Origin: a virus
Lineage: Duplodnaviria > Heunggongvirae > Uroviricota > Caudoviricetes
Strand: one strand, 5' to 3'
IMG/VR virus record: IMGVR_UViG_2541047783_000002
DNA length: 34,509 nt
The stretch's first letter is position 1. Each line of letters begins with the position of its first letter. The notes under the pieces are model-generated. The model searched no databases. It saw only the letters and a list, made by a program, of their open reading frames with translations, and had not been told where the DNA came from. Below, in pieces: positions 3,072 through 26,300 of this stretch. A program made the position numbers and the translations under genes.

Positions 3072-4222
3072 TTTTTCTTCTCCTTAATCACCGTCGATGT
3101 ACTGCCATCCGGGTGATAAACCGTGAGTTTCTGAGTTTTTTGTTTTTTACCTCTTGTGACTGGCCCCCGTGCCACTTCCAGCTCTGTGGTGTAGCCGCTG
3201 TTACGGTCAAACGCATGACGGGCAGTGGTTATGAGCCATGCCCCGGATAACTGCCCAAAACCCACCAGTTCAATTTTGTTGCCTGCTGTCAGTTGAGGTG
3301 TTCCCGTCAGCGTCAGGGAGCCGTTCTGCTGGTATTCGTTATGTCTGGCCAGTGCTGAATCCGCTTTAATCCGGGCACTGTCCGGGTCGCTGACGCGGCT
3401 GTTAACTTTAAGTGAGTCAGCACTGGTAACCTTACCACCTTTGAGCTTTTTGTCGCTTTCACGGGTACCACCATCAGCTTCGTAGACGATCAGTTTTTTA
3501 CTGCTGCTTTTCTGGTGTTTTACCTTTGCAGATTTATAGACCCGGTTGATGGTGTCACGCAGGGAAAAGCGGGCCACATCCTGCGGTTTTAACTGCCTGA
3601 CCGGCTCCTGACTGCGCAATGTGGCCAGATGAGAAAAAATCAGCTGGTCACTGACCACTTTCACTGCATAACCATACTCGCTGGCCAGCCGGCGCAGAAA
3701 ACCCACGTCGGTTTCAGCATACTGGGTCACCCGGTCGATTCTGATGGACTCAATGCTGCCCACCAGTTTCAGCCGGTGCTTTCGGGCAATCCTTCCCGCG
3801 ATGGCCGCCAGCGTGGTGTTCTCGAAACCACGACTGGTTTTAGTCCGCAGGGCACTGTTAACCGAGGTGGCCACGCCACGGATAGAAACAACGGAAGCGG
3901 GCGAACTCACCTCGATCTCGTCTATAGAAAACGTACCGCAGGACAGCAGTTTCTCGCCCTGATAGCCCATTTTCAGCGTCAGCGTGTCACCTTTGCCCGG
4001 ATACCACTTATCCAGCCAGCGGCCATCGGTGTCGTCCAGCTCCACCTCAACAGTATCGGACTCATTTTTGATGTTATCGCTCCAGGTCACACGGGTGACA
4101 TAAGGCGCGATATCAGAGGTGATGTTTTTCTGCAGATACCACAGAGTGAACACCGGTGTCAGCACATCGCTGACGCCGGTTAACGCTGATGTGACTTGCG
4201 CAGTGCTGTTTATCTCAGCCAT
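3068..4222 (-). CDS. tail protein D-like (P2 gpD late control D / Mu gp44 baseplate hub family)
   Basis: 384 aa, size close to P2 gpD; sits between X-like and V-like genes. Confidence 0.7.
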   Translation of the reverse strand: MAEINSTAQVTSALTGVSDVLTPVFTLWYLQKNITSDIAPYVTRVTWSDNIKNESDTVEVELDDTDGRWLDKWYPGKGDTLTLKMGYQGEKLLSCGTFSIDEIEVSSPASVVSIRGVATSVNSALRTKTSRGFENTTLAAIAGRIARKHRLKLVGSIESIRIDRVTQYAETDVGFLRRLASEYGYAVKVVSDQLIFSHLATLRSQEPVRQLKPQDVARFSLRDTINRVYKSAKVKHQKSSSKKLIVYEADGGTRESDKKLKGGKVTSADSLKVNSRVSDPDSARIKADSALARHNEYQQNGSLTLTGTPQLTAGNKIELVGFGQLSGAWLITTARHAFDRNSGYTTELEVARGPVTRGKKQKTQKLTVYHPDGSTSTVIKEKKK

Positions 4223-5306: not shown

Positions 5307-8257
5307 CAGCGGTACTCCTTACGTTGTTTCTGAGCCAGCAGACGCTCCAGCATTTTTTCCAGCTCATGCAGGCTCATATTCAGGGCGCCAGTCAGTCCGG
5401 CAGGCGCTGTGGTTTCCCTGCCATTGAGGAAAAACTGAGGATTAAAGCTGACCTGGATACCACCAGACGTTCCACCGCCGGTTGCAGCTGCACCACGGCC
5501 TGAATATCCGGCAGCCATGATTTCAGGCGAGGGGATACGGGGAACATCCGGTGTCATCTCATTTGCCAGACGTTGCCCTGGTAAAATCGATGCCCGGGTG
5601 GAGAGCGGGATAGCGGGCATGGAAGACAAACTATTGATTACGGCTCCGATCGCATTTTTAGCAGACGACATAAACCCGTTGATATCGGGCAACGGCATAC
5701 TGAAGCGAACACCTGAAGTGTTATCCCGTATTTCTGGCCCCTGAATGCTCACGGGCATTCTGGGGAGCAGTTCACTGGCCATTCGCTGCCCGGCCAGAGC
5801 TGCAAGCGGAGTGGTCCGCTGCAGGCCAATGGCGGCCCCCTGCGCGATATTGTCACCAAAGCCCATAAACACGCGGCTCGGCGAATGAATGCCCAGCTTT
5901 TCGCTGAACCAGCCACTGATGCTGTCACCCATTCCGGTTACACTGGATTTGAGCGACTCCCATTTGTTTTTGATACCGTTAATCAGACCATCGACAAGAT
6001 GGCCACCGAAGTCGGTAAACTTTGCCGGCAGATCAACACCAAGATATTTCAGCGCAGCTGCAAAGGCTTTACAGAGCAGACCTGCCGGCGACCAGTTAAT
6101 CAGCAGCTTACCAGTTCCCGCGATACCGCCGTTAAAGGCTTCCTGAATGTCAGCCCAGCGTTGTTCAAACCAGCTACTGATGCTGTCACCCATTCCGGTT
6201 ACACTGGATTTGAGCGACCCCCATTTGTTTTTGATACCGTTAATCAGACCGTCGACAAGATGGCCACCGAAGCCGGTGAACTTTGCCGGCAGAGCAACGC
6301 CGAAATATTTCAGCGCAGCCGCAAAGGCTTTATAGAGCAGGCCTGCCGGCGACCAGTTAATCAGCAACTTACCAATTCCCACAATGCCGCCGTTAAAGGC
6401 TTCCTGAATGTCAGCCCAGCGCTGTTTAAACCAGCCACTGACTGCCCCCCAGTTGCGGTAGATAAGGTAAGCTGCTGCCGCGACAGCGGTGATAACGAGA
6501 CCGATGGGATTCATCATCAGCGCACGTCCAATCCAGAGAACAGCACGTCCGGCGAGCATAATTCCGCGAACCAGTCCCCCGGAGAGCACGCCACTCAGTG
6601 TTCTGGCTCCTCTGGCGACGGCGCTAAATCCGGTCACCAGCCAGCGGAGCTTACCGCCTTGCCCCAGTGCGAGCGACAGACGAAGCCAGTTGGCCCGAAG
6701 TAAAACAGCATTTTTCCAGACACTTACAAAGGGGGAAATAAGGAGATTCAGCCCCAGTTTGAGACCAACAGTCGCTATCTTAATCGCAAGGAGCGCACTG
6801 ATGAGCTTAAAAGCCCCACTGACAAATTGCGGGTGAGTCGCTACCCAGTGTTTTGTCCCCTGAATGAGTGGGAGCAGTTCCTGAGTCAGAGAAATAAAAG
6901 ATGGAGCTAATTGATCGCCCAGCGTAATTGCCAGATCGCGACTGCTGACCATAAGTGCTTTAGTGGCTTCAAGGGGAGATTTCAGCCGCTGATCATAAGC
7001 ACTGGCAAGCAAATCGTTATCCGCAGCCCTGAGAGCACCGGCGCGGATCTCGCGATATCTGTCCATGTTGGCCAGCATCGGGCGGATAAATGCCATGACC
7101 TGCATATCCGCGAACATATCACCCAGACCAAAGTTTTTCGCCAGAGCCTGAAGTGCCTCATCTCTTGCCGTATCATTCTTTATTTTCATGGCGGATTTGA
7201 AGCCGGCCAGCGCTTCGGGGCTTTTGGCATTGAGGTAACGTTCTATAACACTCAACATCCCTTCAATCGGAGAGATCCCCGCAGCCTTATAACTCGCAAT
7301 AGATCCCTGCAAATCAATACCCAGATCAGCAAACTGTTTCTGAGTATCGCGGGCAAAAATTTTGGTAAGAAAGTTTTTAAAATTATTGGCTGCCTCGTCG
7401 GTGGAACCTGCACCGATTTTTGCTATCTGGAGACTGGCCCCGATTTCAGCAACAGCCTCTTTTCCACTGGCAATACCCGCCATCATTGGGGCCAGGGACT
7501 GCATCCACTTGACCTGATCCGGGATTTCAAATGACCCCTGGTCACCGGCATAAGCCATAATATTCTGAACGGCACCAAAATCTCTGGCCGCACCTTTCAG
7601 GGAGTTTTGCCAGACTGCGGCCACTTTTGCCCAGTCCTGAGATGACGTGCGTGTTGCCGTTGCCGCGCGGGCAATATCCGGCATCAGAAAACCGATATCT
7701 GACAAGTTATCAATATTGTCGCTGATGAGCGAACCCACCGCCTCCTGCAGCTCATCCTGATACTGATTGTATTTAAGCGCCCAGCCTTTTATCTGTCCGG
7801 CAAGTGCATCCCGCGTTTTATTGTCATATTTTGCGGTGATCGACATATCAATCATTTTGTCCTGAAAAGACATGGACTGCTGAACGGCAGGGGAAACGGT
7901 ATGATAAACAGTCTGTGCCATGCCATACGCTTCAATCCCCTGACCATACAGCGCCATGCGGTTAGCTTTCAGCGCATCACTGGTAGCGGATGCCGCTGAC
8001 AGACGGCGCTGCTGGCGCTCAATTTGCTCCATGGTGCGGCTTACCCGCAGCAGCTCGCTGTTGAGATGCTGCATCCGGGAAGAACCCAGTTGACCATAAC
8101 GTTCTGTTGCACGGGTTAAAGCGTTCTGACGTTCCTGCAGGCGGCGTGAGGTATCGCTCAGGGAATCAAGCGCACGGCGGGTACCGCTCATTGCAGAACG
8201 GAATGTGCTGCCAATCATCCCGCCGATAACAACGCCGACTGAAAACTGTCCCGACAT
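5306..8257 (-). CDS. tail tape measure protein
   Basis: 983 aa, Ala/Gly-rich with predicted hydrophobic segments, internal tandem duplication, located between chaperone pair and baseplate genes. Confidence 0.85.
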   Translation of the reverse strand: MSGQFSVGVVIGGMIGSTFRSAMSGTRRALDSLSDTSRRLQERQNALTRATERYGQLGSSRMQHLNSELLRVSRTMEQIERQQRRLSAASATSDALKANRMALYGQGIEAYGMAQTVYHTVSPAVQQSMSFQDKMIDMSITAKYDNKTRDALAGQIKGWALKYNQYQDELQEAVGSLISDNIDNLSDIGFLMPDIARAATATRTSSQDWAKVAAVWQNSLKGAARDFGAVQNIMAYAGDQGSFEIPDQVKWMQSLAPMMAGIASGKEAVAEIGASLQIAKIGAGSTDEAANNFKNFLTKIFARDTQKQFADLGIDLQGSIASYKAAGISPIEGMLSVIERYLNAKSPEALAGFKSAMKIKNDTARDEALQALAKNFGLGDMFADMQVMAFIRPMLANMDRYREIRAGALRAADNDLLASAYDQRLKSPLEATKALMVSSRDLAITLGDQLAPSFISLTQELLPLIQGTKHWVATHPQFVSGAFKLISALLAIKIATVGLKLGLNLLISPFVSVWKNAVLLRANWLRLSLALGQGGKLRWLVTGFSAVARGARTLSGVLSGGLVRGIMLAGRAVLWIGRALMMNPIGLVITAVAAAAYLIYRNWGAVSGWFKQRWADIQEAFNGGIVGIGKLLINWSPAGLLYKAFAAALKYFGVALPAKFTGFGGHLVDGLINGIKNKWGSLKSSVTGMGDSISSWFEQRWADIQEAFNGGIAGTGKLLINWSPAGLLCKAFAAALKYLGVDLPAKFTDFGGHLVDGLINGIKNKWESLKSSVTGMGDSISGWFSEKLGIHSPSRVFMGFGDNIAQGAAIGLQRTTPLAALAGQRMASELLPRMPVSIQGPEIRDNTSGVRFSMPLPDINGFMSSAKNAIGAVINSLSSMPAIPLSTRASILPGQRLANEMTPDVPRIPSPEIMAAGYSGRGAAATGGGTSGGIQVSFNPQFFLNGRETTAPAGLTGALNMSLHELEKMLERLLAQKQRKEYR
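5907..6428. repeat. 261-bp direct tandem duplication (2 copies, a few mismatches) inside tape measure gene
   Basis: Motif aaccagc[ct]actga recurs at 5907, 6168 and 6429; encoded peptide repeat SWFEQRWADIQEAFNGGI...KWxSLKSSVTGMGDSIS occurs twice in the 983-aa product. Confidence 0.85.
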
Positions 8258-20783: not shown

Positions 20784-21501
20784 AACTGCTGCCTCCCCAT
20801 GTGAGATATCGCGGTGCCAGTTCGCGCAGGATGCGCTGCGGATAATGGCGGTTCTCCCGCCAGCTGGCCGCATTGCGTCCGGCATTCACCGTGGCGACAT
20901 GTCCGAACCAGCGGGTGCTGTCCAGACCTTTCTGTGATGCAAGCCGCCTGTCCCGTTGTACCCAGCCCAGACCACCGTTATAGCCCGACAGTGTCATGGC
21001 CATACGCTCGCAGTCACTGGCGGCGCTGACGCGCTGCCACAGCCAGCGGTCATAGCTGACCAGCGCCCGGATGGCCCATGCCGGATTAAACGGCTCACGG
21101 CTGTTAAGCCCCGGCATCAGCTGACTTATCCAGTCAGCAGTGGCGGGCATGAACTGCGCCAGTCCCTGAGCGCCAGCCGGCGAGACCGCATCAGGTCGCC
21201 AGCCGCTTTCCTGATGCAGTTGCGCGGCGAAATCGGCCACCGGCGCAGACAGTCCCCATTCAAGCCGGGCATTACGGATCACATCATCGCGATACTGCAG
21301 CGCAGCCTGCGGAGGTTGTGCTGCGCATGCCTGGCTGAAAAAGCCGCCACACCAGAGCAGCCAGACAATCACCAGGTTGCCAGCAAGCTGCCACCAGAAG
21401 CTGTATTTATCGTTACGTGGTTCGCCGTGTCTGATGGCGGTTACGCCCAGACCAAAGGCGAACAGAATAATGAGGGTGATTTGAGGCCAGTTCATGGTCA
21501 C
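20677..21501 (-). CDS. endolysin, lytic transglycosylase (SLT domain) with predicted N-terminal membrane segments
   Basis: Motif LHQESGWRPDAVSPAGAQGLAQFMPATA matches SLT catalytic region (ES...GLMQ...T); N-terminal hydrophobic stretches ITLIILFAFGLGVTAI and LAGNLVIVWLLWCGGFF. Confidence 0.75.
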   Translation of the reverse strand: MTMNWPQITLIILFAFGLGVTAIRHGEPRNDKYSFWWQLAGNLVIVWLLWCGGFFSQACAAQPPQAALQYRDDVIRNARLEWGLSAPVADFAAQLHQESGWRPDAVSPAGAQGLAQFMPATADWISQLMPGLNSREPFNPAWAIRALVSYDRWLWQRVSAASDCERMAMTLSGYNGGLGWVQRDRRLASQKGLDSTRWFGHVATVNAGRNAASWRENRHYPQRILRELAPRYLTWGGSSCVASGEKAAVARHSAGHSYQCLSGRPVCHGIQKWS

Positions 21502-21848
21502 AGTCCTGTTGCCACAGCCAGACAGACCGCTGCAACAATCAGTGCACGGCGGATTAACGCAGCAGAAAATACAAGGTGAAGGCCGGTCTGCACAGGGAAA
21601 CGCCCTTCAGCCATCAGCCTGTCGTCATGTTTCAGGTACTGACCGGGACGGGCTTTGGGGAAGAGCGAACGGTCAAGCCAGTAACCCAGCACTGCTGCCA
21701 GTGTGATGAGTGCCAGCTTGTAGATCACAACAGGTAACTGCTGTGGTGAGACCAGAGCGATGGTGCCCAGCAACAGCACTGAGGTCAGCAGCCAGCCGCT
21801 GAGGCGAGGTTTTTTAACAGGGGGAATGAATTTTTTCAGGTTTTTCAT
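21498..21848 (-). CDS. putative holin / small membrane protein
   Basis: Three predicted hydrophobic helices; start at ATG 21848 preceded by AAGGAGA SD; first gene of lysis cassette. Confidence 0.5.
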   Translation of the reverse strand: MKNLKKFIPPVKKPRLSGWLLTSVLLLGTIALVSPQQLPVVIYKLALITLAAVLGYWLDRSLFPKARPGQYLKHDDRLMAEGRFPVQTGLHLVFSAALIRRALIVAAVCLAVATGL

Positions 21849-21978
21849 GTGTGTCTCCTTGTCTGGTGGAGACAGCATCACAAATACAGGGCGCGAAGGA
21901 TTTTAAAGCGCGTTAAGAGAGCCGGGGATACGGGATGTGCAGGATAAACGATGAATTATTCACAGAGGAGAATGCAAC

Positions 21979-22722
21979 ATGACACATACACTGAATCCGG
22001 TCATCACTGTCACCGTGTCCGGTCCTGTGGGCAGCGGTAAAAGTTACGTACTGGCGCGGATAGAGGAAGTGGTGAAACAGGAACTCGGAAACAGCGTCAT
22101 TGTCGATGCCGCAGACGTGGACGGTGAGCGCCGTATGAGTGGCGATGATCTGACGACCTGGCAGAAGCCACGGGCTGGCACAGTGATCAGGCTGGAGGAA
22201 TACACGGGACAGGGCCTGTTGTCATACGGCGAGGAGCGTATCTGTCGGACGAATGAGCTACTGGATGTTATATGCCCCACGGGCCGGCAACCCTGGATAC
22301 TGCCCGATGCACTGCATGCCACCATTGCGGCACTGATGACAGTTTACGATCAGGAGCTGCTCATGAAGGAGTTACGTAAACTCACCGGTCAGCCAACAGA
22401 ATGTTGTTCGTCCCCGAAGTACGGGAAACAGGAACACATCCCGGTAAACACAATCCCCGTTAACCAGCCTCCCCGGTTCTTCGACGAATACATTCTGACA
22501 CCGGAAAATAAAGCTGAGCATGAAGAGATCAAAGCGGCGTTGTTCCGGGAAATCAGGAAGATTGCTGAAATGCAGCTGGGGGGCGGGCTGGACAGAGTGA
22601 TGGCGAGAGGAGAATGGGCATCGCTGTTTGAAAGAGTTTCCCCGGAATTACTTCCCCTCGCACTGGCTATCGGGATTATGCAGACAGCAGATAAACCTCA
22701 CTTACGTTCATTAAACACGTAA
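21979..22722 (+). CDS. hypothetical protein with N-terminal Walker A P-loop (GPVGSGKS)
   Basis: 247 aa; GAGGAG SD upstream of ATG; P-loop motif near residue 15-22; remainder unrecognised. Confidence 0.5.
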   Translation: MTHTLNPVITVTVSGPVGSGKSYVLARIEEVVKQELGNSVIVDAADVDGERRMSGDDLTTWQKPRAGTVIRLEEYTGQGLLSYGEERICRTNELLDVICPTGRQPWILPDALHATIAALMTVYDQELLMKELRKLTGQPTECCSSPKYGKQEHIPVNTIPVNQPPRFFDEYILTPENKAEHEEIKAALFREIRKIAEMQLGGGLDRVMARGEWASLFERVSPELLPLALAIGIMQTADKPHLRSLNT

Positions 22723-23102
22723 CGCATAATCCGGGATACGCATTCAGCGATGACTGCATTTTCGCCGGTTTTTACTGCATCCAGAAGCAACTCTTTAAAT
22801 GGTACGGGCCGGGGCTGCAGAAAGGTCGGCATGGCATTGAGCAGACAGAGCGTTTTTTCCGTGAGGACGACATCAGCCGCTCCCACAGCCAGCAACTGAG
22901 AGTAACGAATATAGCTGTTATCCCGAAGCCATATCAGCGTATCAATAAAATACCGGCACTTTTTCTGGTCGTGATCAACCTGGTCCGGGATATCGAAAAA
23001 ACCAGAATAAATCAAAACCTGAGGTGCCGGATGCGTGTTCAGTAATCGGCAGAATATTTTGCCGGTGAGTACATAAAAATCATCATTTAAGGAGTGCATC
23101 AT
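22698..23102 (-). CDS. hypothetical protein (134 aa)
   Basis: ORF convergent with 21979..22722 (25-bp 3' overlap); start codon overlaps start of 23101..23316 on opposite strand; no recognisable family. Confidence 0.4.
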   Translation of the reverse strand: MMHSLNDDFYVLTGKIFCRLLNTHPAPQVLIYSGFFDIPDQVDHDQKKCRYFIDTLIWLRDNSYIRYSQLLAVGAADVVLTEKTLCLLNAMPTFLQPRPVPFKELLLDAVKTGENAVIAECVSRIMRYVFNERK

Positions 23103-23316
23103 GAATCCCCGATTAACGTTAACAGAACATCAGCGCCGTGCCGAAGCAGTGAACAATGTTCTGGAAGATATTATCCGGTTACATCGCGGAGAACTGAGTA
23201 TCTGTCGTGCCACTGTTCATTTTCAGGAAATACAAAAGCAGTTCGATACTTCTGTTTTTGCAGAAGGGATCACTTATGCCCTGGACCAGATAAAGGCAGA
23301 CAATCACCCCGGATAA
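23101..23316 (+). CDS. hypothetical protein (71 aa)
   Basis: ATG preceded by AAGGAG at correct spacing. Confidence 0.45.
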   Translation: MNPRLTLTEHQRRAEAVNNVLEDIIRLHRGELSICRATVHFQEIQKQFDTSVFAEGITYALDQIKADNHPG

Positions 23317-23448
23317 TCCCTAAACCACATTAACAGAAATCCCACTATCCCTGCCGCATCATGAAAGAACGACCAGCCCGGTGCTTCGGACCCACCGGAC
23401 TGGCCATCGTCCCACAGAAGTGGCTGTGAGCCGACCGAGGTTCAGTCA

Positions 23449-23460
23449 GTCTCGCGAGAC
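23449..23460. promoter_or_regulatory. perfect 12-bp palindrome GTCTCGCGAGAC upstream of methyltransferase gene
   Basis: Self-complementary dodecamer about 50 bp upstream of the 23508 start, in a 190-bp noncoding gap. Confidence 0.3.
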
Positions 23461-23507
23461 CAGACTAGCCTGCCATATTTTTAATAATTGTAAAAGGCTT
23501 ACAGATT

Positions 23508-24272
23508 ATGAAAATGCAGACATTACCCATCGTTCCATGGATTGGTGGCAAACGCCGCCTTGCAAAACACATTCTGCCGCTGTTTCCGGCGCATGAATGT
23601 TATGTGGAGCCGTTCTGTGGGGCAGCAGCGCTCTATTTTCTTAAGACACCCGGCAAGATCGAAGTCATTAATGATATCAACGGTGAACTGGTGAATCTGT
23701 ACCGGGTGGTAAAGCATCACCTGGAAGAATTTGTCCGCCAGTTCAAATGGGCGCTGGTCAGCCGTCAGATCTACAAATGGCTGCAGATCACCCCGGAAGA
23801 AACACTGACGGATATCCAGCGTGCGGCACGGTTCTACTACCTTCAGAAGCAGGCGTTTGGCGGCAAGGTGGCAGAGCACAGCTTCGGTACCTCCACCACA
23901 TCCCCGCCACGCTTCAACCTGCTGCGTATTGAAGAAGAACTGTCAGCAGCACACCTGCGGCTTTCCAGAACAGTCATAGAACACATGGACTGGCAACAGT
24001 GCATTGAGCGTTATGATCGTCCGCACACGCTGTTCTACTGCGACCCACCGTACCTGGGTACGGAAGGCTATGGTGTGGATTTTCCTGAAGAGAACTACAC
24101 ACTACTCGCAGAACTGGCCCGGTGCATCAGAGGAAAGATGATTATCTCGGTGAACGACATTCCGCAGATGCGTCGGGTGTTCACTGAACTGAACATACAG
24201 ACGGTGAATATCAACTACAGTCTGGCGGGTAAACCCACGCCGCGCCGTGAACTGGTAATCTGCAACTTCTGA
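23508..24272 (+). CDS. DNA N6-adenine methyltransferase (Dam/D12 class), orphan
   Basis: N-terminal SAM-binding motif VEPFCGAAAL and catalytic DPPY motif (FYCDPPYLG); no adjacent restriction endonuclease gene. Confidence 0.85.
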   Translation: MKMQTLPIVPWIGGKRRLAKHILPLFPAHECYVEPFCGAAALYFLKTPGKIEVINDINGELVNLYRVVKHHLEEFVRQFKWALVSRQIYKWLQITPEETLTDIQRAARFYYLQKQAFGGKVAEHSFGTSTTSPPRFNLLRIEEELSAAHLRLSRTVIEHMDWQQCIERYDRPHTLFYCDPPYLGTEGYGVDFPEENYTLLAELARCIRGKMIISVNDIPQMRRVFTELNIQTVNINYSLAGKPTPRRELVICNF

Positions 24273-24303
24273 AACAAAACCGGAAAGCACAATGCTTTCC
24301 GGT
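24271..24303 (-). terminator. intrinsic terminator downstream of repressor gene (possibly bidirectional)
   Basis: Perfect 11-bp stem ACCGGAAAGCA/TGCTTTCCGGT with 3-nt loop (24279-24303); on minus strand followed by UUUUGUUUC. Confidence 0.6.
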
Positions 24304-24388
24304 AAATCAGCCCATTCCTGCCATGCTACTGACGGCGCTTTCTGAAAGCGTCCAGATCAACCACCTGTCCTTTGTGTCCGGGTCAGAA

Positions 24389-24766
24389 TCAGCCTGTAAA
24401 TTTACTTGGTTTGGGTTGAGTATAGAATCGCCCAACCTCAAGAAATGAGCGTCGTTGTTCCGGAGTCATTTCATCAAATGCGTCCATTAATTTTTGTTTT
24501 TCTGGTGACATTTTTGGGACAACATTGGTCATTACATCCCCTCTCTGTCCTGTAACAACGTAAAGCACGTCAAGCCCTAAAGTAGCCCAAATTGCCAAAG
24601 CATCTGCTCCGGGAGCGGATTCATCCTTTTCCCACCGCAATTGGCTTTTATAGGATGCCCCCACCAATTCAGCAAACTCAGACTGACTAAATCCTAGGCG
24701 GTTTCTTTCTTCTTTTAATCGTGAGCCAAGTGACATTTTTGTCCAATACCTATTTACATATCCCAT
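24389..24766 (-). CDS. XRE-family HTH repressor (c repressor analogue)
   Basis: HTH_XRE-like segment LGFSQSEFAELVGASYKSQLRWEKDE; divergent from early operon; true start may be ATG 24736 (MSLGSRL...) rather than 24766. Confidence 0.7.
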   Translation of the reverse strand: MGYVNRYWTKMSLGSRLKEERNRLGFSQSEFAELVGASYKSQLRWEKDESAPGADALAIWATLGLDVLYVVTGQRGDVMTNVVPKMSPEKQKLMDAFDEMTPEQRRSFLEVGRFYTQPKPSKFTG

Positions 24767-24776
24767 TTTTGGGATA
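24759..24776. promoter_or_regulatory. candidate operator: inverted repeat TATCCCA-N4-TGGGATA in divergent repressor/early promoter region
   Basis: 7-bp arms, 4-bp T spacer, located between repressor start and early operon start. Confidence 0.35.
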
Positions 24777-24828
24777 ATAATCTAACATATATAGAGCAAA
24801 CATCATTGCGTTAATAAAGGAGGCAACA

Positions 24829-25017
24829 ATGACTGCAGAGCAGGTCAAAGCCCATTTCCGCCGCAACGGAATCACCTTTACCCAGTGGGCAAAACAGAAC
24901 AACTACACCCGAGCAGAGGTTTACCGCGTACTGAATGGACAGGTAAAAGCGAACTATGGCAAAGCCCATGAAATCGCCGTCAAGCTGGGATTAAAAACCA
25001 TCACTGACGCCGCTTAA
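24829..25017 (+). CDS. Ner/Cro-like small DNA-binding protein (first early gene)
   Basis: 62 aa, strong SD AAAGGAGG; HTH-like segment TQWAKQNNYTRAEVYRVLNG; position equivalent to Mu ner. Confidence 0.5.
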   Translation: MTAEQVKAHFRRNGITFTQWAKQNNYTRAEVYRVLNGQVKANYGKAHEIAVKLGLKTITDAA

Positions 25018-25069
25018 AAAGATACAGCATGCGAAAAAGATTATCACATATTGAAAAAGAGGTATGCAG

Positions 25070-25378
25070 ATGAGTAAGACGAATGTTTCAAGCTCCGGCA
25101 GTCGCATCCTCCGGGTACTCAAAGCGCTGCGCGGTCATGCCCTGAACGGTATTTCCAACGGTGAACTGGCAGCAGCACTGCACGAGTCACCGGCAAACAT
25201 CAACCGGGCACTCAACACCCTCATTGAAGAAGGGCTGGCCCTGAAACTGGAGAATGGACGTTTTGCTCCTGGCATCCAGTTACTGCAGATCGCCATGGCT
25301 CACAGTAACGAGATGGCACGAGCGCAGGATCGTATTAACGAAATCAACCAACGTGTCATTTCAGGTAGTCGTTTGTAA
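25070..25378 (+). CDS. putative winged-helix DNA-binding protein
   Basis: HTH-like segment ISNGELAAALHESPANINRALNTLIEEGLA; start set at second ATG (25070) which has AAGAGG SD at proper spacing. Confidence 0.45.
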   Translation: MSKTNVSSSGSRILRVLKALRGHALNGISNGELAAALHESPANINRALNTLIEEGLALKLENGRFAPGIQLLQIAMAHSNEMARAQDRINEINQRVISGSRL

Positions 25379-25388
25379 GGAGTAATCA

Positions 25389-26300
25389 ATGGGACGCACC
25401 AAATCACCGGTTAGCACTGAACTGAACGCCGAGATACCGCTGTCTGATGATCTCAACGTCAGCCTGAATGCCATGACACAGCATCGTATGGAGATCATGC
25501 AGCAGTTCGGCGACGGCCTGCCCTATGAACGTAATCGCATCGTTCACGAAACTCGGTTTTATATGGACCAGAGTGCGGAGGCTATGCTGGAGGCAGGTAA
25601 ACGTTTGGTTATCCTGAAGGAAAATGAACCTCATGGAGAATACGTACAAATCGTCAAAGAACAGTTGAACCTTGAGCCACGCATAGCCCAAAAAATGGCC
25701 CAAGCTGCTCTGAAGTTTTTATCTCCAGAGCTGACATCAAAAGCGAAAACGTTTTCGCATTTGGGAAGATCAAAACTGTACGAATTGATGTTAGAGGATG
25801 ATGAAGACCTTGCCGAACTGGCCGACGGTGGCACAGTTGCCGGACTGACGCTTGACGACGTTGATCGCATGTCAGTACGTGAATTGCGTCAGTCTCTTCG
25901 CGAAGCCCGCGAAACCAACGCAGCACAACAGCGCGTGCTGGCCGACAAAAATGAAAAAATAGACTCACTCTCCACCAGACTGGAGAAGAAATCCCGTATT
26001 CAGCCGCCTGAGCCTGACGAAGAGGTGAAGAAACTGCGGGCGGAAGTGACAGCGTTAGCGGTTGAGGCGGAATCAGCTATCGCCGTCCGACTGTCCAGCG
26101 CTTTTGAGACGCTGTGTGCATATTGTGCTGAAAACATGATTGATACCCCCAGAGACTTCATGGCAGGCCTGGTCTGTCAACTGGAAAGCACAGCGCGTAG
26201 CCTGCGCTCCACATTTGACCTGCCGGACGAGCCAACAGGCGATGTCGCGCCTTCATGGCTGACTGAGCCGACGCCACAGATTAACGGGCTGGAGGCATAA
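25389..26300 (+). CDS. hypothetical protein (303 aa, predicted coiled-coil) upstream of transposase
   Basis: AAGGAG SD; charged helical central region; conserved position in early operon. Confidence 0.5.
   Translation: MGRTKSPVSTELNAEIPLSDDLNVSLNAMTQHRMEIMQQFGDGLPYERNRIVHETRFYMDQSAEAMLEAGKRLVILKENEPHGEYVQIVKEQLNLEPRIAQKMAQAALKFLSPELTSKAKTFSHLGRSKLYELMLEDDEDLAELADGGTVAGLTLDDVDRMSVRELRQSLREARETNAAQQRVLADKNEKIDSLSTRLEKKSRIQPPEPDEEVKKLRAEVTALAVEAESAIAVRLSSAFETLCAYCAENMIDTPRDFMAGLVCQLESTARSLRSTFDLPDEPTGDVAPSWLTEPTPQINGLEA

Follow-up and report, generated by a model that had tools for sequence, protein, structure and literature searches.

An exchangeable three-gene cargo and a conserved structured RNA at the hinge between the lysis genes and the repressor of a BcepMu-like Escherichia coli prophage

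In lambdoid phages, rexAB and sieB adjoin the repressor gene, and the Dam methylases found in phages usually have a role in the lytic cycle. Short terminated RNAs or leaders that precede late genes are likewise familiar in phages, such as the 6S RNA of lambda (PR'-tR'), the put RNA of HK022 and the c4 RNA of P1 and P7. The hotspots of P2 have been described (bioRxiv 10.1101/2022.05.12.491691), a defence system of Mu-like prophages is mentioned in the preprint by Vassallo et al., and in the Burkholderia phage KS10 two hypothetical genes lie between the holin and the repressor (PMC2628397). The locus analysed here, the hinge between the holin and the repressor, resembles the P2/P4 and lambdoid hotspots in being a fixed site between conserved phage genes that is occupied by many swapped, mostly hypothetical gene sets, and in its position beside the immunity region. 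It differs from them in that its host is a transposable BcepMu-like phage, that it consists of two adjacent slots with a structured RNA and the near-core Dam gene between them, and that almost none of its cargo matches known defence families.

Gene arrangement and flanks of the hinge

The analysed DNA (the window, 34,509 nucleotides, IMG/VR record IMGVR_UViG_2541047783_000002) is from a transposable, BcepMu-like E. coli prophage, and the prophage locus was identical (100%) to that of E. coli MS1657, where the RefSeq annotation includes the genes for the 247-, 134- and 71-aa proteins. The 247-aa gene (21979..22722, plus strand, phrog_3787) converges on the 134-aa gene (22698..23102, minus strand, phrog_2266) with an overlap of 25 bp (22698-22722), the ATG of the 134-aa gene shares 2 nt with the ATG, on the opposite strand, of the 71-aa gene (23101..23316, plus strand, phrog_4490), and a DNA adenine methylase gene (Dam, 254 aa; 23508..24272, plus strand) lies downstream. 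The four ORFs, the GPVGSGKS motif of the 247-aa protein, the convergent overlap and the back-to-back starts were all located where the original prediction had placed them. Ribosome-binding sites (AGGAG/AAGGAG) precede the 247-aa and 71-aa genes, and each of the three proteins, of which the 71-aa one is predicted to be helical, matched a PHROG family (E values of 1e-43 to 1e-167); together with the RefSeq annotation and the Serratia homologs described below, this indicates that the three are more than chance ORFs. The GC content was 0.47-0.50 over 22.5-25.5 kb, versus 0.55-0.60 elsewhere.

On the left, the hinge is bounded by the holin gene (21498..21881, minus strand; Pfam Holin_2-3, PF13272, 1.2e-40), with which the long lysis/late arm on the minus strand begins. 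Its true start is probably the ATG at 21848 instead of 21881, since the CDS annotated in PhiKM and MS1657 is 351 nt long, and this start leaves a spacer of ~130 bp between the holin and the 247-aa gene. Through comparison of the slot variants, a conserved motif, TTAACGCGCTTTAAAATCC, was recognized ~45 nt ahead of the ATG of the holin gene (21898..21916, minus strand). All slot variants inspected have it beside the holin, it occurs once in the window, and it may be an activator-dependent late promoter, in which TAAAAT would be the −10 and a −35 element is missing. On the right, the hinge is bounded by a HTH repressor gene (24389..24766, minus strand; weak matches to Pfam HTH_3/HTH_31, and annotated in MS1657), and the divergent early operon begins at 24829. 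A strong intrinsic terminator of the repressor transcript, with an 11-bp stem followed by TTTTGTTT, was found on the minus strand only (24279..24303), which argues against the repressor transcript running on into the 134-aa gene. In the promoter and terminator scan, counts were not above those of shuffled sequence, and sigma-70 promoter prediction returned none for the 247-aa or 134-aa gene. The scan also found no terminator between the 134-aa gene and the holin, so that expression of the 134-aa gene in the lysogen would risk read-through into the lysis genes.

Variability of the hinge and mosaicism of its cargo

Among 69 related IMG/VR prophages, compared from the holin to an IclR-like early gene, 34 slot types were distinguished between conserved flanks, bearing out the earlier suggestion that the junction is a variable accessory slot; with conserved flanks and many alternative contents, the hinge has the make-up of a variable hotspot. 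It is a recombination hotspot of two slots, slot 1 reaching from the candidate late promoter and holin to the RNA-Dam unit and slot 2 from Dam to the repressor, and the 247-, 134- and 71-aa genes (the trio) are exchangeable cargo of slot 1. Since the trio was found alongside different repressor/Ner types, it moves independently of immunity. Other hinge cargo included a KwaA-like membrane protein (weak match, E 8e-5) with an NA37 partner, a protein resembling a 2TM effector (weak match, E 7.5e-5), and lipoproteins, secreted and TM proteins, a set that weakly resembles exclusion or defence proteins.

The three genes are real, accessory and mosaic, and the mosaicism is most evident in the 247-aa cytoplasmic protein, in which an N module (residues 1-75; 21979-22203), an M module (residues ~98-137; 22270-22389) and a C module (residues ~176-240; 22504-22698) were delimited. 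Distant relatives retrieved by an exhaustive HMMER search matched in the N module only; dozens of representatives of 50%-identity clusters have this module at 35-60% identity, and it has been shuffled between proteins whose C-termini are unrelated. The M module is also found in proteins that lack the N module, and the C module matches an 89-aa Serratia protein (E 2e-11). Shortened versions of 141, 158 and 182 aa are common, the last without residues ~49-124. By k-mer and profile searches of 5.8 billion proteins, the 247-aa family was found essentially in E. coli only and the 134-aa family in E. coli and Serratia only. A scan of a genome collection with the N module yielded 2 loci only, swamped by generic P-loop matches.

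The motif GPVGSGKS occupies residues 15-22 of the 247-aa protein and follows a beta-strand, conforming to the Walker A pattern GxxxxGK[ST]; G20 and K21 are invariant across 28 homologs, and S22 is replaced by N in several of them (GK-N for GK-S/T). The proposal of a P-loop protein thus stood as far as the Walker A is concerned, but the NTPase fold was left unsupported: the conserved region is limited to residues 1-75 and does not make up a complete core with a Walker B, the AF2 model reached a pLDDT of ~90 in the N module only, all P-loop families of Pfam scored below cutoff (best AAA_30, 16.5 bits versus 27), and fold searches with the protein returned no P-loop NTPase. It is like the P-loop NTPases in that its Walker A (GxxGxGK[ST]) after a beta-strand leads into a helix and then a hydrophobic strand with acidic residues at its end, and unlike them in its conserved unit of ~75 residues, the lack of an ABC signature, the sub-cutoff Pfam scores and the GK-N of some members. 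The label ABC transporter ATPase, given by RefSeq to the 141- and 158-aa variants, was rejected, as LSGGQ is absent from the 247-aa sequence and ABC_tran scored 14.9 bits on the 141-aa variant versus a cutoff of 25. Should the 75-residue module bind nucleotides, it would rank as a natural P-loop domain of unusually small size.

In Serratia prophages the C module, the 134-aa gene and the 71-aa gene occur together with the same overlaps, and the P-loop module is absent; the homologs are a 139-aa protein with 53% identity to the 134-aa protein and a 73-aa protein with 38% identity to the 71-aa protein (E 7e-12), both in the same arrangement. The recurring unit is therefore the C module with the 134-aa and 71-aa genes, the N and M modules being separately shuffled add-ons. 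The 134-aa gene is itself absent from most relatives in the 69-prophage set, and its family, always encoded on the minus strand, includes paralogs of 126-145 aa with 25% identity elsewhere in the hinge of other prophages. In two of the loci (L112/L113), a clean natural deletion of 318 bp (22731..23048) has removed most of the 134-aa gene and left its neighbours, including the 247-aa gene, intact, and the same junction was found in 17 complete E. coli genomes. The 134-aa gene is hence dispensable and is not an essential antitoxin, and the notion that the four genes form one system did not survive the circulating deletion variants or the form that the cluster takes in Serratia.

Scans of the three small proteins against Pfam, NCBIfam and PADLOC (PADLOC-DB v2.0 of 2023, 5027 models) gave nothing above cutoff; in PADLOC, the 134- and 71-aa proteins had no matches and the 247-aa protein had only noise at the P-loop level (E of at least 0.005). 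The PHROG families that they matched are all of unknown function, and the PDB provided neither a sequence or profile match nor a fold match. The lack of any known defence, toxin or core phage family for the three small genes in Pfam, NCBIfam, PADLOC and PHROGs accords with the original prediction, which had been unable to assign a known defence family. The pattern WL..(N/S)GY(I/L)...(V/A)LT(E/A)K(T/G)L..LN of the 134-aa family is one that we take to be reminiscent of winged-helix proteins, and one UniRef name among the homologs is DUF2513; however, no member of the family matched DUF2513 or HTH families in Pfam even at E values of 1-10, and the DUF2513/winged-helix identity was discarded, since neither profiles nor folds matched a wHTH family. 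Literature searches under the accession numbers, the PHROG ids and the sequence of the RNA described below found nothing.

The Dam methylase and the adjoining structured RNA

The fourth gene of the cluster encodes an orphan D12-class Dam, as it matched PF02086 over its full length (101.5 bits, 8.5e-29), has a DPPY motif and has no nuclease domain among its neighbours by Pfam and PADLOC. It scored 114.6 against TIGR00571 (cutoff 114.85) and 1.3e-111 against the generic PADLOC model MTase_II; membership in PD-lambda-5 was rejected, with an E value of 4.5e-16 versus that 1.3e-111 and no partner match. In the full-length PF02086 match, the DPPY motif and the absence of a neighbouring nuclease, this gene alone of the four is like the phage orphan Dams (D12, TIGR00571), from which it differs in being part of the phage backbone and coupled to an unannotated divergent structured RNA. 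Dam was present in 59 of the 69 related loci, often directly beside the holin, the sequence just upstream of its start is conserved and travels with it, and its polymorphism comprised 67 synonymous and 19 non-synonymous changes. Rather than being part of the cargo, as had been assumed, Dam is near-core and always accompanied by the conserved RNA.

This RNA, of about 115-130 nt, lies between the 71-aa gene and Dam (23356..23486, minus strand), was recognized by fold, covariation and a covariance model, and is newly found here and annotated nowhere before; searches of Rfam with the window and with the region gave no sequence or structure match. It consists of a hairpin at the 5′-end and then two hairpins enclosed by a closing helix, and at its 3′-end a GC-rich stem is followed by UUCUUUC, so that a conserved structure with covariation is combined with a GC stem and U-tract on the presumed transcribed strand. 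The minus strand is indicated by the G-U pairs and the fold z-scores (−3.5 on the minus strand versus −2.4 on the plus strand). In the alignment, 97.2% of cells were paired and 10 pairs had changes on both sides, and the covariation was 0.215 versus 0.142 in shuffles (reached by 0 of 500) and at most 0.114 in slid controls. With the covariance model (R1), the RNA was detected in all Dam-bearing relatives. The promoter candidate matches the consensus at only 9 of 12 positions, and its −10 candidate is poorly conserved. From its sequence features, the element is a candidate sRNA or leader/insulator terminator. It is comparable to the phage 6S, put and c4 RNAs as a multi-hairpin RNA that ends in a predicted intrinsic terminator and lies, in cargo-less relatives, just upstream of the late/lysis operon, and unlike them it has no Rfam match and is a predicted transcript. 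A conserved, unannotated phage RNA between a methylase gene and the lysis operon is a lead separate from the cargo.

Possible functions of the cargo

As the likeliest of the readings considered, we tentatively propose that the trio serves in phage-phage or phage-host conflict, as a superinfection exclusion or defence function benefiting the lysogen; the only positive argument for defence is guilt by location, and our confidence in it is low. We infer that the three soluble proteins would act as a small cytoplasmic complex, in which the Walker-A module may be a nucleotide- or phosphate-binding part for regulation or sensing and not an ATPase motor, and that the gene geometry would control expression by transcriptional interference: plus-strand transcription (247-aa gene, 71-aa gene and Dam) would be antisense to the 134-aa gene, and minus-strand transcription (RNA element and 134-aa gene, toward the holin) would be antisense to the 247-aa and 71-aa genes. 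Polymorphism comprised 28 synonymous and 23 non-synonymous changes in the 247-aa gene, 2 and 9 in the 134-aa gene, and 6 and 12 in the 71-aa gene, and such high non-synonymous change in small genes fits arms-race or relaxed evolution, as well as decay. The orientation that the 247-aa and 71-aa genes share with Dam would equally fit counter-defence. A lytic-cycle accessory role of this kind, which we regard as somewhat doubtful, would have both genes transcribed with Dam or just before it, early after induction or infection, and acting with methylation to neutralise host restriction or defence or to take over host functions. Both genes lie directly upstream of Dam on the same strand, the scan found no intervening plus-strand terminator, the unit could end near the hairpin at 24279-24303, and the products are small soluble mosaic proteins with shuffled modules of 40-70 residues and fast amino-acid change, as is typical of phage anti-defence proteins; however, most relatives have Dam without these genes and with its own conserved upstream sequence, the structured RNA intervenes between the 71-aa gene and Dam, and neither PHROGs nor Pfam gave a match to a known anti-defence family.

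An alternative that we consider unlikely is regulation within the phage, whereby the 134-aa protein and its paralogs would bind nucleic acid and, with the RNA as leader or terminator, tune the late (lysis) operon or Dam, modulated by the 247- and 71-aa proteins. In one locus (L053), two copies of the RNA each have a 134-aa-family gene downstream on the same strand, one of which begins 45 nt after the RNA terminator, and in cargo-less phages the conserved motif near the holin follows ~45 nt downstream of the RNA; the constant minus-strand location of the family, its winged-helix-like pattern and the single DUF2513 name point the same way. Yet the Pfam searches lent this identity no support, and since most relatives lack the 134-aa gene and 17 complete genomes carry its deletion, it cannot be a regulator that the phage requires. 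The trio could instead consist of functionless or decaying hitch-hikers, remnants of shuffled genes kept only because the hotspot in which they lie tolerates recombination and the prophage lineage is successful. The circulating deletion allele, the common shortened 247-aa versions and the very narrow range (essentially E. coli and Serratia) agree with this, as does the number of non-synonymous changes in the 71-aa and 134-aa genes, which equals or exceeds that of synonymous changes. We judge this distinctly unlikely: frames are intact, lengths are conserved and the overlaps are the same in E. coli and Serratia at 38-53% identity, the N module has been kept at 35-60% identity in dozens of cluster representatives, third positions carry an excess of the changes in the 247-aa gene (28 of 51), and the ribosome-binding sites are strong. 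A toxin-antitoxin or abortive infection pair, with the P-loop protein as a zeta-like kinase toxin and the 134-aa protein as its antitoxin, was suggested by the tight overlap of the two genes and by a sub-threshold Zeta_toxin match on the 141-aa variant (14.6 bits versus 22.3), which covers ~40 residues and spans the Walker A and the next strand, IVDAAD. It is most improbable and largely refuted by the deletion alleles (L112/L113 and the 17 complete genomes), in which the 247-aa gene stays intact without its supposed antitoxin; moreover, the genes are convergent and form no operon, the P-loop module has 75 residues only with GK-N in some members, the 139-aa Serratia homolog is kept without any P-loop module, and no kinase fold was matched.

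Beside the conflict function tentatively proposed for the trio, the hinge as a whole might be an unrecognised defence hotspot, which we hold to be very unlikely in the following form: convergent pairs in slot 1 would combine an effector or sensor expressed in the lysogen (here the mosaic protein with its minimal 75-residue Walker-A module) with an opposing off-switch gene, and a leader RNA would control cargo and lysis. The opposing gene would be transcribed only upon late read-through of the minus-strand leader RNA, the read-through would yield both protein and antisense RNA and switch the system off, providing self-immunity, and the conserved RNA would be a new cis-acting terminator/antiterminator leader for cargo and lysis genes. 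Should the hinge prove to be a conflict hotspot of the P2/P4 kind, its ~30 unannotated cargo families would form a compact list of candidates for exclusion, defence and counter-defence, and, given flanks as fixed as the holin motif on one side and the RNA-Dam unit on the other, the cargo is easy to mine and clone. The prophage lineage was found in 630 of 5426 complete E. coli genomes (~1 in 9), 482 of them with this trio as cargo, and many clinical isolates are among the carriers.

Gene content and two slots of the hinge

The window holds an entire transposable prophage of the BcepMu-like type (Bcepmuvirus) from E. coli. Its lysis and structural genes run leftwards from the holin on the minus strand, and its plus strand carries the early genes (Ner-like, IclR-like HTH, DUF3102 and transposase) rightwards from 24829; the cluster of interest is the hinge joining these late and early arms. 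Escherichia phage PhiKM matches region 21400-24800 at 94.9% identity, Klebsiella phage KP12 resembles it in part, and 21882-23500 is matched at 100% in the E. coli MS1657 chromosome. Over 22500-25500, a stretch taking in the 3′ half of the cargo, Dam, the repressor and the first early genes, the GC content is 0.47-0.50, versus 0.55-0.60 in the remaining prophage.

All four predicted hinge ORFs were found in the sequence, namely a 247-aa gene (21979-22722, plus strand; phrog_3787) with GPVGSGKS at residues 15-22, a 134-aa gene (22698-23102, minus strand; phrog_2266), a 71-aa gene (23101-23316, plus strand; phrog_4490) and a 254-aa Dam (23508-24272, plus strand), as were the 25-bp convergent overlap of the first two and the opposite-strand start-codon overlap of the 134- and 71-aa genes. 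The RefSeq annotation of MS1657 has every one of them, and the 247-, 134- and 71-aa proteins (the trio) strongly match PHROG families, all three listed as of unknown function; judged by the RefSeq calls, PHROG matches and Serratia homologs, the hinge ORFs are genuine genes. The PhiKM record (L001, a fetched relative locus, 3218-3597; PQ738613.1) has no annotated 134-aa CDS, and the ORF is there at 98.5% identity.

By fetching 80 IMG/VR loci by holin similarity, mapping the window proteins onto them and counting the 69 that had both conserved flanks (holin and IclR-like early gene), we found 34 distinct sequence types between the flanks, in line with the expected variable slot between conserved flanks. 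Dam was present in 59 of these loci, compared with ∼21 for the P-loop family, 15 for the 134-aa family and 10 for the 71-aa family; many relatives have no gene in the ∼215 bp that separate the holin from the Dam start. Because Dam is mostly retained, often directly beside the holin without cargo, the hinge resolves into two slots: slot 1, the holin-Dam interval, occupied by the trio in the window, and slot 2, the Dam-repressor interval, empty in the window. Thus, of the four-gene accessory cluster originally proposed, the trio stands as variable cargo, while Dam lies outside it. The two-slot hinge was confirmed by the annotated E. coli M9682-C1, which carries a 158-aa P-loop fragment followed by 193-aa and 328-aa genes and lacks Dam, and E. 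coli E30, where genes for a 401-aa protein and an NA37 nucleoid-associated protein come after Dam. The Burkholderia relative KS10 has two hypothetical genes in the holin-repressor interval (PMC2628397). Almost all remaining hinge cargo is without known function, the weak hints being KwaA-like (E 8e-5) and 2TM effector-like (E 7.5e-5) matches, NA37, DUF2441 and several membrane, lipoprotein or secreted proteins. Among 5426 complete E. coli genomes, the holin of this prophage was detected in 630, a structured RNA element of the hinge in 556 and at least 80% of the trio region in 482.

Dam itself is an ordinary D12 orphan methylase. It scored 114.6 against TIGR00571 (cutoff 114.85), and with the equivalog model for E. 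coli Dam it reached only 67 bits versus 441. Its phage group has E. coli, Klebsiella and Serratia as hosts, all of which already encode a Dam of their own.

A mosaic Walker-A protein and its neighbours

Relatives of the 247-aa protein from a k-mer search were confined to E. coli at ≥63% identity and included truncated 141-, 158- and 182-aa forms, and an exhaustive HMMER search added ∼40 cluster representatives sharing residues 1-75 only (35-60% identity), their C-termini (0-290 residues) being unrelated. Family members never vary at G20 and K21, the residue after GK being N in several, and the AF2 model gave a pLDDT of ∼90 for residues 1-75 and <60 elsewhere. In divergent BcepMu-like phages (holin identity 63-68%), a gene with this N module always sits at the same site, divergent from the holin. 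These sequence comparisons identify the N module as a real, conserved Walker-A-bearing mini-module, so that much of the predicted ‘P-loop protein’ survives; the ATPase assignment, however, has no support, no Pfam P-loop family scoring above threshold, and our analysis places the 75-residue module in no described family. The RefSeq name ‘ABC transporter ATPase’ for the 141/158-aa truncated forms (L004 5098-5574, WP_000149906.1; protein P0017) is an over-annotation: Walker A alone fits it, with neither an ABC signature nor a profile match above cutoff. The middle module (residues ∼98-137), PWxLPDAxHAxxAALxxxYDQxLxxxELRK, is found again at the C-terminal end of other members of the family and in one slot protein without the N module, and in Serratia the C module (residues ∼176-240) has a homolog that stands alone as an 89-aa protein (E 2e-11).

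The 134- and 71-aa families have an extremely narrow range. Serratia prophages carry homologs arranged as in the window (53% and 38% identity, respectively) in the order holin, 89-aa C-module protein, 139-aa, 73-aa, Dam and repressor, keeping a 37-bp convergent overlap and back-to-back start codons; since the P-loop module is missing there, the recurring unit is the C module plus the 134- and 71-aa genes. Paralogs of the 134-aa protein (∼25% identity, 126-145 aa) occupy other hinge positions, on the minus strand in every case: L053 has one beside Dam, and in L108/L110 they lie downstream of the repressor operon. A clean 318-bp deletion (22731-23048) in the IMG/VR loci L112 and L113 removes the 134-aa gene and spares the 247-aa, 71-aa and Dam genes, and 17 complete E. 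coli genomes, of cattle, buffalo, chicken and human origin, have its junction; as this natural deletion leaves the neighbours intact, the 134-aa protein is not their essential antitoxin or immunity factor. A 24-nt direct repeat (AATCCC...ATTAACAGAA, 75% identical; 23104-23127 and 23315-23338) brackets the 71-aa gene exactly, the minus strand of one copy carrying the 134-aa ribosome-binding site; none was seen in the Serratia loci.

A structured RNA and the proposed wiring of slot 1

A conserved multi-hairpin RNA lies on the minus strand at 23356-23486, directly upstream of and divergent from Dam. The 191-bp 71-aa/Dam spacer folds at -74.2 kcal/mol (z -3.5) on the minus strand versus -50.1 kcal/mol (z -2.4) on the plus strand, several pairs being G-U on the minus strand and C-A if read on the plus strand, and 23362-23500 is conserved upstream of Dam also in genomes without the trio. 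An alignment of 20 diverse versions displayed a 5′ hairpin, then a closing helix enclosing two hairpins, the last hairpin being GC-rich and followed by UUCUUUC, with compensatory changes at ten pairs. In the 62-sequence model alignment 97.2% of cells pair, and the covariation score of 0.215 was reached by 0 of 500 shuffles (0.142) and compares with ≤0.114 for slid partners. The covariance model found exactly one copy per Dam-bearing relative tested, except two in L053, and one in L034, a locus without Dam, directly after a minus-strand lipoprotein gene. Both L053 copies are followed by a same-strand 134-aa-family gene, one 45 nt away. The extra copy (L053 4763-5526) arrived together with a duplicated Dam 5′ fragment and a 134-aa-protein paralog of 148 aa, so it appears that the RNA travels jointly with a gene of the 134-aa family. 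The region has neither an Rfam match nor a RefSeq or GenBank annotation, and we place the RNA in no described family. It has three possible readings: a short terminated RNA from a putative promoter overlapping the Dam start, a leader/attenuator of the downstream minus-strand genes, or a terminator insulating the lysis operon. The candidate promoter is a single, poorly conserved 9/12 match in the window.

Next to the holin, the conserved motif TTAACGCGCTTTAAAATCC (21898-21916, minus strand) precedes the holin ATG by ∼45 nt in every slot variant; TTAACGCNCTTTAAAAT stands beside every holin on the minus strand, occurs once in the window, and in cargo-less phages follows the RNA element end by ∼45 nt. 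With TAAAAT as a -10 and no -35, the motif looks like an activator-dependent late promoter, probably the only one for the lysis and structural genes. The repressor transcript is predicted to end at a strong terminator on the minus strand (24279-24303) and would therefore stop short of the cluster; between the RNA element and the holin, a stretch that includes the 134-aa gene, no minus-strand terminator was predicted. A plus-strand transcript spanning the 247-aa, 71-aa and Dam genes would run antisense to the 134-aa gene, and a minus-strand transcript from the RNA element into the 134-aa gene would run antisense to the 71- and 247-aa genes. Other slot-1 variants with unrelated cargo likewise have a plus-strand gene beside the holin converging on a minus-strand gene. 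This recurring geometry, together with the antisense layout, suggests that expression of one strand excludes expression of the other, possibly in connection with late development.

Possible roles of the cargo

The comparison supports the trio being exchangeable accessory cargo in a recombination hotspot. In its behaviour the hinge resembles the hotspots of P2 and P4 prophages and the moron sites beside the repressor in lambdoid phages, so the trio is new content of a known locus type and not demonstrably a new system. For the trio, the comparison excluded a core phage role and a classical toxin-antitoxin pair, as well as any catalogued defence family, and its sequences pointed to no biochemical activity.

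Ranked first, and tentatively, is a conflict-related function for the lysogen (exclusion or defence), because the slot is hypervariable, its content is independent of immunity type, its alternative cargo includes membrane, lipoprotein and KwaA-like proteins, and amino-acid change is fast. A counter-defence or takeover role in the lytic cycle, linked to Dam, comes a close second and is itself doubtful, and a regulatory role of the 134-aa family with the RNA, ranked third, is unlikely. Decay is less likely again. Synonymous/non-synonymous polymorphisms among E. coli alleles numbered 67/19 in Dam and 28/23 in the 247-aa gene, where purifying selection is strong and moderate, respectively, and 6/12 and 2/9 in the 71- and 134-aa genes, where these small counts gave no detectable purifying selection.

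In slot 2 of L005 (E. coli E30, 5905-8120), L066, L067 and L069, the 401-aa gene with the weak KwaA match (E 8e-5) and the following 335-aa NA37 gene are co-directional with the repressor; this pair may represent a Kiwa-like system whose partner differs. The most frequent cargo family of slot 2, in 33 of the 69 loci, is a 312-349-aa or 177-aa gene without a family match (L044 1284-2728 in slot coordinates; L004 6284-7728; also L061, L101 and L118), and its 4-nt overlap with the repressor stop codon in many relatives suggests translational coupling.
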